Shown: positions 20,610 through 29,055 of the stretch, piece after piece
How positions within the stretch are numbered: the first letter of the stretch is position 1
Layout of the letters: every line of letters begins with the position of its first letter
From: Candidatus Heimdallarchaeota archaeon
GTDB lineage: Archaea; Asgardarchaeota; Heimdallarchaeia; JABLTI01
DNA length: 32,000 nt
Assembly: GCA_030614005.1 (NCBI GenBank)
Contig: JAUWKS010000032.1
Location: forward strand, 1-32,000
Direction of reading: 5' to 3'
Notes under the pieces: model-generated
Database searches by the model: none
Told to the model about the DNA's origin: nothing
The model's input: the letters and a program-made list of their open reading frames with translations, nothing else
Made by a program: the position numbers and the translations under genes

Positions 20610-20684
20610 CAAAACTCACATTTCTTCTTACAGGGCTAGTAGTCCAGTGTGGGAAGGACGCGCTTCCAGCTTAGATGCTTTCAG

Positions 20685-21776
20685 CTAAGATTCAGATGTT
20701 GTATTAGCAGTTTTGCTAGATTCTAATTGTTTGAAAGATTGATTAATAATTGTTATTTTGTTTGTTCTACCCCATCTATCACGTTTTAGAACTTTTTTTT
20801 CCTCTAATTTTGCTAATATTTTTGAAACTTTTGATTTAGAATAACCTGTCTTATCACAAATCCTTCTTTGAGTTGAAACACCACCATCTAAATTTATAGC
20901 TATGATTATTTCTTGCTCACTTTTACTGAGAAGTGAGGTAACCAAATCTTTCTCACGGGTTTTCTTACGCACTGAATAAAAGATGATTACTCCAAGTGAA
21001 CCTGACATTAGTCCAACGAATAGTGATAAGATGTTTAGGAAAACTTTGTTACTATTTTCACTAGAAAGTATTATTGATCCTGGAATGTATCTAATAAGGA
21101 AAAGGTCACTCTGGTTGATATTTCTATTAGTGTATTCCCAGCTAATCTTAATTATATCATTTTCTTCACTAATTTTTGAAGGTTTAGGAAAAAGAGGTTC
21201 AAGACGTTCTATATCTAGAATTTCTGCGTAAATTGGTAATAATAATTCAAGATTAAATGCAAGTGAATTTCTTGGATGATTGACCCCATAATTAAGCTCA
21301 AAATACTCAGGAATCCCCAATACACGATAGACAGTATCTTTAATTTTATATGAAACAGAGAAAGCATAAATTTCATCTTGTAATAAAGGGTATCGCAAGG
21401 TAACATTAATCAAATTACCTGTAACGGGATTAACAAGCCATATGAATTGTAATGAATCAATTAAATCAAAACAAAAAACTGAGTCTATCGTTTTATTAAT
21501 TATGAAAGTAAAGAAATTTAGTGGTTGAGTATCATTATTTATCAAAACAAAAGTAGAAGTAATTTCTAGGGTATTCTCTTGATTAATTTTCACTTTCATT
21601 TTATGAGTAAATAATGTTTCATTTATGATGGAATTGGATTCCAATGGACAAATAAAATCACTAGTAGTAGGAGATTTTGAAATAGGTATCTCACAGTTAC
21701 TATTTGACGATTTATGAATACTTAATGTTAATAATGTTAAGAAAACCAACATTTTGATATAACTGCGAGGATACAT
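20685..21776 (-). CDS. Membrane-spanning transcriptional regulator: exported domain, TM helix, C-terminal winged HTH (COG2512-like)
   Basis: Signal-like N-terminus, TM at VFLNILSLFVGLMSGSLGVIIFY, wHTH TQRRICDKTGYSKSKVSKILAKLEEK..RDRWGRTNKI. Confidence 0.85.
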   Translation of the reverse strand: MYPRSYIKMLVFLTLLTLSIHKSSNSNCEIPISKSPTTSDFICPLESNSIINETLFTHKMKVKINQENTLEITSTFVLINNDTQPLNFFTFIINKTIDSVFCFDLIDSLQFIWLVNPVTGNLINVTLRYPLLQDEIYAFSVSYKIKDTVYRVLGIPEYFELNYGVNHPRNSLAFNLELLLPIYAEILDIERLEPLFPKPSKISEENDIIKISWEYTNRNINQSDLFLIRYIPGSIILSSENSNKVFLNILSLFVGLMSGSLGVIIFYSVRKKTREKDLVTSLLSKSEQEIIIAINLDGGVSTQRRICDKTGYSKSKVSKILAKLEEKKVLKRDRWGRTNKITIINQSFKQLESSKTANTTSES

Positions 21777-25788: not shown

Positions 25789-27810
25789 AGTAGGTTCCGA
25801 CACGCAAACGCCATCTGGGGGATGGATTGGCTCGGACGCCGATGAAGGACGTGGCTAGCTGCGATAAGCGCGGGGTAGCTGCAGGCAGGCATAGAACCCG
25901 TGATTTCCTAATGGGAACTCCTAATGCGAACCAATAAGTCGCATTACTCCGTAAGGAGGGGGAACGCACCGGACGGAAACATCCAAGTAGGTGCAGGAAA
26001 AGAAATCAACTGAGATGCCCAGAAGTAACGGCGAGTGAAATGGGCATAGGCCAAACTGAATCCCCATACGCAAGTATTGGGAAATGTAGTGTTACGGACT
26101 CTCTATTGAGCTCTGCGATGCGAAGCTGAATATTCTGGAAAGCTTAACTAAAGAGGGTGATAGTCCCGTAAGCGTAAACATCCCTGAGTGTGAGAGTATC
26201 CTGAATAGCGGGGGTTGGAAATCCCTCGTGAATGGGGCACAACGAGCTCCAAGCCTAAATACGTTCCGAGACCGATAGCGCAATAGTAACGTGAGTGAAA
26301 GCTGAAAAGTAACCCGGAAGGGTAGTGAAAAGTGCCTGAAACCAGATGGTTATAGACGTTTGTGGCCCGAAAGGTAAGATCCTCCATGAAGAGAAAGCTG
26401 GTGACAGCTAGATCGTTTGGAGGGGACCGGGGTCACAAGTTCCGTCTAGAAACACGGACCAGGGAGGTCATACTTGTGGCAAGCTTAAGTGATGTCAAAA
26501 ACACGCAAGCGTAGCGAAAGCGACATGCCCGCAGTTTACAAGGGGCGCCGTCTGAAAGGGCGGGAAGTCACAGGTGTGAGACCCGAAACCGGACGATCTA
26601 CCCCTGAGCAGGCTGAAGCCTAGGGAAACCTGGGTGGAGGGCCGAGCAAGTATTGACGTGCAATTCATGTTTGTTGACTTGGGGGTAGGGGCAAAAGACC
26701 AATCTAGTCCGGTGATAGCTGGTTCCCAACGAAGTGGACATAGGCCAGCCTGCTCTGAGATGGAGCATTCGGTAGAGCAATGATTGATGGTTACGGGAAG
26801 TAAAATTCTCGCCTGTCAGTCAAACTACGAACGGATGTTTATCGTAGAAGAGTAGAGTCGGGCGTGCGTGCGTAAGGCACGTGGCCGAAAGGGGAATAAC
26901 CCAGACTATGGTTAAGGTCCCTAAATCTCGATTAAATGCTAAAATTGGAAGGACGTCATTGGACTAAGACAGTAAGGCGGTAGGCTTAGAAACAGCCACC
27001 CGCTAAGAAAAACGTAACAGTTTACTTACCGAGTCCTTTGGCTCCGAGAATGGACGGGGCTAAATCGAGTACCGATACCTTAGAATACATTGAAAGATGT
27101 AATTTGATAGTTGGGCGATCTGGTTGGGCGGAAGCAGGGCAGTGATGTCCTGTGGACCGATCAGATTTGCAGATCCTGGCGGTAGTAACAGCAAAGAGAG
27201 GTGAGAATCCTCTCCGCCGAAAGGGCAAGGTTTTCACGGCAACGTTCGTCAGCCGTGAGTTAGTCGATCCTAAGGGCGCTCTTATCTGCGGCGCTCGAAA
27301 GGGAAACAGGTTTAAATTCCTGTACTGCGTGGATACGTCAGAAGCGGCAACGCGAAGATCATTTTCTGACGCGACTGGATAAGCTCTGTAAAGTTATCGC
27401 TTTATTTAACTATATAACCCTCAGAAGTACCGTGACGGTGAGAATGAGGTGAAATTAGGAATAGGCTGCCAATAGTGGCGGCTCGAGCTTTTTCCACTCG
27501 CCCATGAAAAGGAAAATGATAAGGATTCCACGTAATCGTACCCAGAACTGACACAGGTGTCCCAAGGTGAGAAGCCTAAGGCGTGTTCGATCAACGATGG
27601 TGAGGGAAATCGGCAAATTCGCCCCGTAACTTCGGGATAAGGGATGCCTGTGGGCTTGAAAGGGCTCGCAGGTCGCAGTGACAAGGAAGGAACAACTGTT
27701 CAATTCAAACATAGCAAACCGCAAGGGTGAAAACCTGTGAACGGTTTGTGAATCCTGCTCAATGCTGGTATGTGAAAGCCGGGTCCAACCGGTCCAAGCA
27801 CCAGTCAATA

Positions 27811-27850
<40 letters not shown>

Positions 27851-28377
27851 TGTCGGATAAGTACCGACGTGCATGAACGGATCAATGATTCCTTCGCTGT
27901 CCCCACCGTCGATCGAGTGAACCCACTAGCCAGCGAACAGTCTGGCACCAACCAGCGGGAAGAGAAGACCCCGTGGAGTTTTACTGCAGCCTGTGCCTGT
28001 TTTACGGGTAGTTATACATAGTGTAGTCAGGAGCGTCGAACCAAATTCTCAGGGATTTGGGAATGCAACAATGAAACACTGACTTTAACGGCTTGTTTGA
28101 CTAACTTCTACTTCTGTAGAAGGACAAGTATTGGTGGGCAGTTTAGCTGGGGCGGCTGCGCTTGAAAAGGTATCGAGCGTGTCCAAAGGTTAGCTCAGAA
28201 GGGACGGAAACCCTTCGTAGAGTATAAGAATAAAAGCTAGCTTGACAGGGTTCTTTCCCATAGGGAACTCTGCAACGAAAGTTTGGTCTAGCGATCTGTC
28301 GATGGATCTCGTTGATTCACGGCAGCGGCAGAAAAATTACCCCGGGGGTAACAGAGTCGTCGCAGGCGAGAGCTCAC

Positions 28378-28446
28378 ACTCTCCAGACAAAAAGTTACCT
28401 CGATATATAAAGAAAGATCTAGGTTTACGTTCTGGAGGAGGAGTAT
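28378..28446 (+). other. 69-nt archaeal BHB intron in the helix 89 loop (between E. coli-equivalent positions 2477 and 2478)
   Basis: Central helix GCUC/GAGU, 3-nt bulges ACA and AUA, inner stem CUC-UCCAGA/UCUGGA-G-GAG, outer stem is H89. Splicing gives GAGAGCUCAC-AUCGACC. Confidence 0.92.
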
Positions 28447-28534
28447 ATCGACCCTGCGGCTTGCTACCTCGATGTCGGCTCTTCCTCTCCTGGCGCCGCA
28501 CAAGACGCCAAGGGTAGGGTTGTACGCCCATTAA

Positions 28535-28577
<43 letters not shown>

Positions 28578-28628
28578 ATTCTTTCTACTGGTTGTGCTGG
28601 GAAATTGAGGGTAGGGCAGGGTCGGTAC

Positions 28629-28689
28629 ATTGTATGAGATGTACAGATTCAAACTACATGATTAGTTTAGTAATCTCTTATAAGCCAAA
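28629..28689 (+). other. 61-nt archaeal relaxed-BHB/BHL intron in the sarcin-ricin loop (between E. coli-equivalent C2658 and G2659)
   Basis: 5' bulge ACA, inner stem UUGUAUGAGAU/AUCUCUUAUAA (10 of 11 paired), central helix CGGU/GCCA (one C-A mismatch), 3' AA|G. Splicing gives GGUAC-GAGAGGA. Confidence 0.88.
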
Positions 28690-28818
28690 GAGAGGACCCC
28701 CCCGTCGGCGCCTCTAGTCTACCGGTTATCTGACAAGGTAACGCCGGGCAGCCACGCGCCAAGCGATAATAGCTGAAAGCATCTAAGCTAGAAACGCGTC
28801 CTGAAACGAATTTCCCAT

Positions 28819-28946
28819 TCTAACGAAGTTTCGACAATGATTGACTCTTACAAGCTGTTTAGAGTTGTGTTACAATTATGAAAAATTATTTTTTTAGTTG
28901 GTCGTTTCGAGCATGGGAATGGCGACATTAACATGTTTTCGTTGGA
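28819..28946 (+). other. ~128-nt expansion segment at helix 98 (ES39 position)
   Basis: Inserted between UUUCCCAU and CGAAGGUUCC; closed by UCUAACGAA/UUCGUUGGA; branched hairpins; no BHB bulges. Confidence 0.85.
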
Positions 28947-29055
28947 CGAAGGTTCCGATACAAGATCGGTTTGAAAGGAGTGCGGTGTACGCGTCGAGTC
29001 TTCGGGCGAGATGCTCAGCCGGCACTTACTTACCACCTAAGCGTGTCATTACCGA

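Follow-up and report, generated by a model that had tools for sequence, protein, structure and literature searches.

The 23S rRNA gene of a Candidatus Heimdallarchaeota archaeon raises the question of how a large ribosomal subunit can be completed when 61 nucleotides interrupt its sarcin-ricin loop (SRL) in the DNA. We analyzed a stretch of 32,000 nucleotides, hereafter the window (GenBank assembly GCA_030614005.1, contig JAUWKS010000032.1, positions 1 to 32,000), to which all coordinates given without a contig name refer. The archaeal 23S rRNA gene was delimited on the plus strand by a match to RF02540 at 25794-29052 (2542 bits, model positions 1-2987) and is complete. The first-pass annotation, made from the letters alone, had raised the concern that this might be a non-expressed pseudogene copy; the match is the single LSU rRNA match in the genome (G000; 3.6 Mb in 126 contigs, estimated to be 90% complete). 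Short pieces of 23S sequence occur elsewhere: 33 nucleotides with 94% identity lie 8 kb upstream on the minus strand (20655-20687), and a 92-nucleotide, 86%-identical copy of 28908-29000 lies on another contig (G000:C112:14809-14900).

The SRL region at 28619-28699 reads GGGUCGGUAC, followed by the 61-nucleotide insert (28629-28689, plus strand) and GAGAGGACCC. GGTAC ends at 28628 and GAGAGGACC starts at 28690, and from G28690 on the gene continues with the GAGA tetraloop and G2663-G2664 of the mature SRL. In the E. coli numbering, which we take to be established for the SRL, the insert lies between C2658 and G2659 in helix 95. The bulged G of this loop is G2655, ricin attacks at A2660 and alpha-sarcin at G2661-A2662. 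With its loop divided in this way, a subunit that has not been spliced should fail to activate translational GTPases, and splicing would thus be obligatory.

The bounds of the insert cannot slide, since the mature loop is GUAC-GAGA-GGAC and the insert both starts and ends with A. In BLAST comparisons with genomes of the same genus the alignment broke exactly at 28628/28690, where two congeners, G007 and G009, are contiguous. The first-pass annotation had described the loop as split into GGUAC, 61 nucleotides and GAGAGGA; the letters of the window read this way, and the intronless G007 and G009, together with nine intronless metagenome contigs, read GGUAC-GAGAGGA, so that removal of the intron restores the conserved sequence. 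A search of public archaeal 23S genes for insertions after C2658 had been proposed as a check; the BLAST comparison recovered inserts at the same site in two further congeners (65 nucleotides in G010 and 62 in G005). Among JGI metagenome contigs with the genus-specific 3′ exon there was one carrier (L050, 61 nucleotides, 96.7% identical to the 23S gene of the window) beside the nine intronless ones, and an ENA metagenome scaffold (L082) supplied a 64-nucleotide variant, the fifth known. The intron is ORF-less and single-copy, as no other copy of the 61 nucleotides was found in the genome. No Rfam family matched 28620-28700 up to E = 1, and no group I core was found. A C/D-box or other small-RNA function was considered and rejected, given this lack of an Rfam match and the fact that the box-like motifs seen by eye are not conserved in G005.

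Five divergent versions of the insert, 61-65 nucleotides in length, are thus known from independent assemblies and collections (G000, G010, G005, L050 and L082). At least half of the sampled 31-mers that touch the intron were also present in ten DNA sequencing runs from about nine further studies, possible source samples having been left out. The chance that the reads would show an intact SRL had been pointed out at the outset, and nothing beyond the general risk attached to MAGs favors an assembly or binning artefact; the five independent variants and the DNA runs exclude it for practical purposes.

Within the genus the intron is scattered. In a maximum-likelihood tree of the 23S exons, the carriers G000, G010 and L050 formed one clade (support 99/100), whose nearest neighbours, L046 and L047, are without the SRL intron, and the carrier G005 was placed elsewhere, beside the intronless L054 and G007. 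With carriers scattered in this way, at least two gains or losses are needed; patchy presence within a genus is typical of mobile or decaying introns. The SRL of the genus reads C-GGUAC-GAGA-GGACC (28623-28628 and 28690-28698), with G at 2654 and C at 2666, and that of relatives in the class reads AGUACGAGAGGAAC. The G2654/C2666 form is also present in the intronless members.

The insert was examined for a splice motif by fixing the cuts from the exons alone and then applying the canonical rule of the archaeal splicing endonuclease (EndA), according to which the cut falls after the second base of a 3-nucleotide bulge, the two bulges lie a 4-bp helix H apart and the inner helix h′ follows directly after the 5′ bulge. 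Here the bulge on the 5′ side is ACA (28627-28629), and the cut predicted from the intronless relatives, after C28628 (C2658), agrees with the second-base rule. It is followed by h′ (UUGUAUGAGAU/AUCUCUUAUAA; arms at 28630-28640 and 28673-28683), in which 10 of the 11 positions pair and one is a U.U mismatch. The exon strand GGU of helix H (28624-28626, G2654-U2656 of the mature SRL) pairs with 28684-28686 as G-C, G-C and U.G, and the fourth position, C28623.A28687, is a mismatch. The predicted 3′ cut, after A28689, is AA|G in the canonical register relative to H and lies in a loop of 8 nucleotides in the constrained fold (28687-28694; the 3′ splice-site loop as a feature was delimited at 28688-28695). 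This fold is closed by an outer helix of exon strands, GGGUC (28619-28623) with GACCC (28695-28699). With the cuts fixed by the exons, a register match as good as this was reached by 25 of 200,000 composition-preserving shuffles of the intron.

The strict hBHBh′ definition does not apply to this motif: H has three of four standard pairs, the 3′ cut lies in the 8-nucleotide loop and not in a 3-nucleotide bulge, and the adjacent outer helix is absent, being represented by one U-A pair. The relaxed class does apply, as the central helix, the canonical 5′ bulge AC|A and h′ are present in register. Given the three standard pairs of H and the position of the 3′ cut, we assign the intron to the relaxed HBh′/BHL class and not to strict BHB introns. 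The first-pass annotation had drawn most of this structure correctly. The long intron hairpin and its inner AAACUA/UAGUUU helix (28651-28668) were confirmed, with 10 of 11 and 6 of 6 pairs; the ACA bulge and the AA|G site are both there; the outer closure, proposed as GGGU/ACCC, is found as GGGUC/GACCC; and cuts in the EndA register regenerate the GAGA tetraloop exactly, within a relaxed geometry. Of its CGGU/GCCA central helix three pairs stand and the fourth is the C.A mismatch. Its classification of the insert as an intron of the archaeal endonuclease type is supported by the bulge-helix-loop geometry in register.

Comparison of the variants supported the same structure. All 27 pairs of the constrained structure were kept in the four aligned variants, where sliding the partners gave 32-51% pairing. 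No pair of h′ was broken; in two h′ pairs both partners had changed (U-A to C-G, A-U to G-C), and one-sided changes affected three pairs overall, two of them in h′. This covariation rests on effectively two to three lineages and was equalled in 42 of 500 shuffles. The introns of G000 and G005 are 73% identical: 10 differences are unpaired and 7 fall in paired columns, with all pairing kept. The intron strand of H, GCCA (28684-28687), the bulges and both cut sites are invariant among the variants, as are the five pairs of the outer helix in the four aligned ones. The six pairs of the apical hairpin are present in all variants, and its loop varies in sequence and is 4 nucleotides longer in G010.

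The minimum-energy fold is another one. It consists of two local hairpins, GUACAUU/GAUGUAC and UCUCUU/AAGAGA, in which both splice sites are buried, and its predicted stability exceeds that of the BHL form by 5-8.5 kcal/mol. This two-hairpin fold is conserved as well, with one-sided changes only. Judging from these predicted folds, either the RNA may undergo a conformational switch or proteins may select the cleavable form. The 5′ end of the intron (28629-28645; L003:1780-1797) also mimics the SRL (GUAUGAG in the window, GUACGAG in G005) and makes a perfect hairpin with the exon GUAC, and the intron UCUCUU can pair with the exon AAGAGA. This mimicry could have arisen through duplication of the target site, or it could be an alternative fold built into the intron.

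Genes for RtcB (L041) and for two homologues of EndA are present in the genome. EndA-1 (L039:1474-2193, minus strand), with an intact Tyr-His-Lys triad, is most similar to the catalytic alpha subunits of Crenarchaeota (2cv8, E 1e-36). The best alignment of EndA-2 (L040:1471-2052, minus strand) was with the M. jannaschii enzyme; in EndA-2 the catalytic His is replaced by Pro, and there is a further match to the Sen15 family. From their sequences, the two most likely form an (alpha-beta)2 heterotetramer. This architecture and other broad-specificity forms of EndA are reported to accept relaxed motifs (PMC3239211; bioRxiv 10.64898/2026.10.13.758758), and two EndA paralogues, consistent with (alpha-beta)2, have been reported in 44 of 60 Asgard genomes (bioRxiv 10.64898/2026.10.13.758758). 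The same study warns that relaxed motifs often arise by chance where boundaries are uncertain, a warning that carries less weight for the SRL intron, with its fixed boundary and long h′. A parallel with repair of the SRL by bacterial RtcB/PrfH was dropped, as the RtcB/PrfH work concerns the 16S decoding centre.

Splicing of this type could be followed in the same genus at a second intron of the 23S transcript. This H89 intron (28378-28446) is ORF-less, has 69 nucleotides, lies beside the peptidyl-transferase centre and was present in all DNA of the genus that was examined. Its motif is strict hBHBh′, with H formed by GCUC/GAGU (four of four pairs) and two 3-nucleotide bulges, AC|A and AU|A. 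Four JGI contigs (L049, L051, L052 and L053) have the structure of RNA-derived assemblies: the 69 nucleotides are precisely missing, and the 23S sequence runs from its 3′ end (about 29076) straight into its 5′ end (about 25760), as ...CUAGACCUUAAA-UCUAGAUCUCC.... The junction lies at L052:1130-1200 and L053:575-645, and the flanks in the window are identical there. L052 and L053 are 99-100% identical to congener DNA contigs (L047 and L055) that contain the 69 nucleotides; the DNA of this congener has no SRL intron. RNA-derived contigs without the H89 intron and with joined ends document endonuclease-type splicing and 23S circularisation in the genus, and indicate a circular 23S rRNA. For removal of the SRL intron they give indirect support. 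The H89 intron resembles the SRL intron in being ORF-less, in its 5′ bulge ACA and in sharing the transcript; the two differ in that the former has a strict motif and occurs in all members examined, whereas the latter is relaxed and patchy.

RNA-derived sequences were also searched for the SRL site itself. The 31-mers touching the intron (28599-28719) listed DNA runs and no RNA run, a result that carries no weight on expression either way; the RNA runs X13 and X16-X18 contain 0.28-0.49 of the words of the 23S exons. Spurious ORFs in the rRNA were used as bait for RNA-derived contigs: two ORFs in the exons gave no record, a 97-aa antisense ORF led to DNA contigs only, including L082, and a 268-aa antisense ORF of an Atabeyarchaeia 23S gene (see below) led to one Logan DNA contig only.

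Larger inserts are found in other 23S genes of the genus. An insert of about 880 nucleotides at the equivalent of 27830/27831 is present in G007 (L034:3539-4418) and G005 and absent from the window; in G007 it encodes a 185-aa LAGLIDADG_1 protein (PF00961, E 4e-19). At 28350/28351 (A2450/A2451), G009, G005, L046 and L082 carry an insert of about 185-190 nucleotides, of which the window has none, and a Heimdallarchaeum-like genome (G016) carries one of about 380 nucleotides at the equivalent position. As introns with homing-endonuclease genes colonise the 23S gene of this genus, the SRL mini-intron is plausibly what remains of a mobile intron that had homed to the SRL and later decayed.

In order to place the intron in a wider context, 399 Asgard genomes were surveyed, 205 of which had the SRL part of the 23S; 105 weaker matches were partly re-examined, and contig ends or masked bases cut some alignments short. 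Among the alignments listed, most crossed the SRL unbroken, and interruptions were seen only in three Heimdall genomes and in family f9, the Atabeyarchaeia. All three genomes of this family (G083, G084 and G085) read AGUACGAGAGG, about 34 nucleotides and then AAC (L063 in G083, L064 in G084 and L056, G085:C1:457600-458100, in G085; 34 nucleotides, HBh′ type). Two of the three are closed (2,756,679 and 2,808,651 bp), and two complete Atabeyarchaeia genomes have been published (PMC11291895). Five registers are possible for this insert, and only G2661|A2662 gives a perfect 4-bp helix H (UACG/CGUA) followed by h′; this register also fits the variant 3′ end of G084. The predicted cut coincides with the alpha-sarcin bond. 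The Atabeyarchaeia insert is, like the Heimdall SRL intron, an Asgard mini-intron of HBh′ form whose 3′ cut lies in the loop of the 3′ strand of the SRL. It differs in having half the length, another cut site and a perfect central helix and in being fixed in all three genomes. Since its sequence is unrelated to that of the Heimdall intron, it represents a separate acquisition.

The survey gave some further observations on this part of the gene. G085 has an extra insert of about 120 nucleotides upstream, which splits GUGAGAC|GAGACAGG. In a 23S copy of G336 (L061, G336:C43:1250-1900), the helix 93/94 region continues straight to GCUGAAUGCAUCUAAGC and the whole SRL domain is absent, which could mean that the copy is truncated, that the gene is split or that the assembly is at fault. 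Several copies of a 23S segment of about 100 nucleotides that starts at the SRL occur in genus g4 of family f3 (G019:C65, G017:C70, G033:C8, G015 and G073), some of them kilobases apart on one contig.

We assign a probability of about 0.8 to the reading that the SRL insert is removed by EndA/RtcB splicing as a degenerate intron of the relaxed BHB class, considering its exact bounds and conserved motif, its patchy distribution, the enzyme genes, the splicing of the sister intron in a congener and the independent parallel in Atabeyarchaeia. Another route of removal, in which a different RNase would act on the local hairpins or on the long hairpin, with or without rejoining, seems unlikely to us. 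It would be in line with a minimum-energy fold that consists of two conserved hairpins and not of the BHL form, and with a motif that falls outside the strict BHB definition. On the other hand, the EndA register fits far better than chance would have it, and the same register rule, applied to the unrelated insert of Atabeyarchaeia, leaves a single cut site. Moreover, removal without rejoining would leave the 23S rRNA broken inside the SRL, and the GAGA tetraloop would not survive a nick at C2658/G2659. A single alpha-sarcin cut in the SRL inactivates ribosomes. Rejoining therefore seems to be necessary, and in archaea the ligase known to act on ends of this kind is RtcB. An intervening sequence of the bacterial type, excised and not religated, was likewise rejected because the site is in the stem of the universally conserved GAGA tetraloop and not in a variable helix.

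Two other explanations concern the fate of the gene and of its product. The interrupted 23S gene might be a dead or rarely used copy, with an intronless working copy left unassembled, as can be imagined for a genome in 126 contigs, about 90% complete, when rRNA genes often assemble poorly and intronless alleles occur in the genus. We consider this improbable, because the genome has one LSU match and the nearest complete Heimdall genome searched is also single-copy, the rest of the gene is intact, and both of the closed Atabeyarchaeia genomes have their SRL intron in a single 23S gene. The SRL halves and the splice motif have, in addition, stayed invariant while the introns diverged to 73% identity with compensatory changes, which is unlike the evolution of a dead copy. 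That the mature rRNA keeps the 61 nucleotides, as an enlarged helix 95, could be suggested by the unusual expansion segments for which Asgard 23S rRNAs are known (PMC7594248). The insert, however, lies within the pair that closes the tetraloop, among the most conserved rRNA elements and at no known expansion site (PMC7594248); close relatives function without it, its presence is patchy within one genus and not clade-wide as in an expansion segment, and its geometry is that of a splice motif and not of a simple helix extension. Retention is therefore very improbable.

According to the preferred reading, splicing by EndA and RtcB, exon GGU would pair in the pre-23S rRNA with GCC near the 3′ end of the intron, and the intron ends would form the 11-position helix. 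The 3-nucleotide bulge, AC|A, would thereby present the 5′ site, and a larger loop formed by the 3′ strand of the SRL itself would present the 3′ site (AA|G) at a distance of one helical turn. Both sites would be cut by the tRNA-splicing endonuclease, most likely as an (alpha-beta)2 heterotetramer, RtcB would join the exons and restore GUAC-GAGA-GGAC, and the intron would be set free, probably as a circle.

BHB-type 23S introns of archaea occur in Desulfurococcus, Pyrobaculum and Aeropyrum. Archaeal BHB rRNA introns, such as the short ORF-less 16S introns of Thermoproteales (PMC4496867), share with the Heimdall intron a conserved insertion site in rRNA, a helix of exon and intron strands with bulges in the EndA register, a patchy occurrence and the absence of a self-splicing core. 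The Heimdall intron is set apart by its position in the SRL, its relaxed motif, its length of 61 nucleotides and its host, an Asgard archaeon from a mesophilic habitat. The relaxed tRNA introns of Crenarchaeota and Asgard archaea (HBh′, hBH and BHL; PMC3239211; bioRxiv 10.64898/2026.10.13.758758) have the same substrate geometry and the same enzyme architecture as is probable here, but are hosted at non-canonical positions of tRNAs and not in a functional centre of the 23S rRNA. The first-pass annotation knew of no catalogued intron at this position. As a general statement this did not hold, because group I introns, often with LAGLIDADG_1, are catalogued for CPR bacteria at position 2657 of the 23S (site 23IS14; Tsurumaki et al., 2024, PMC11270868); for archaea none was found described. 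Position 2657 was obtained by alignment to E. coli and the present insert follows C2658, so both are in the same loop and at practically the same position. The CPR introns are, in contrast, self-splicing and hundreds of bases long, whereas the Heimdall insert has 61 nucleotides and no group I match and would need protein enzymes. They show that homing can use SRL DNA as its target and that an intron at this place is tolerated by ribosomes. Full-text literature searches found no archaeal SRL intron, papers on Asgard rRNA were likewise silent, and the CRW catalogue lay beyond their scope, so an earlier description is possible. As far as we found, this endonuclease-type SRL intron is at a site new for archaea.

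A more far-reaching view would see the Asgard SRL mini-introns as a recurrent, selected feature, acquired independently at least twice, at C2658|G2659 in this Heimdall genus and at G2661|A2662 in all Atabeyarchaeia. Large subunits would be built in an inactive form, their GTPase-activating loop disabled, until splicing turns them on, so that EndA and RtcB would perform the last licensing step; the conserved fold that hides the splice sites would act as a switch, and the occupied site would shield the rDNA from homing endonucleases that target the SRL. We regard this as doubtful. The significance of the intron would be greater if the alternative fold gates ribosome activation.

Inserts in the SRL break SRL-based probes, primers and automated 23S annotation for the Heimdall and Atabeya lineages. 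The SRL intron would offer a natural test substrate for the recognition of relaxed motifs by a two-subunit EndA. Together with the group I introns of CPR bacteria, it indicates that the SRL has been colonised by different mechanistic classes of introns in separate domains of life. If the intron is spliced as proposed, the reach of the tRNA-splicing machinery would be wider in this genus, beside removal of the H89 intron and circularisation of the 23S rRNA, and the ribosome of an Asgard archaeon, close kin of the eukaryotes, would be inactive until that machinery repairs its GTPase-activating loop.
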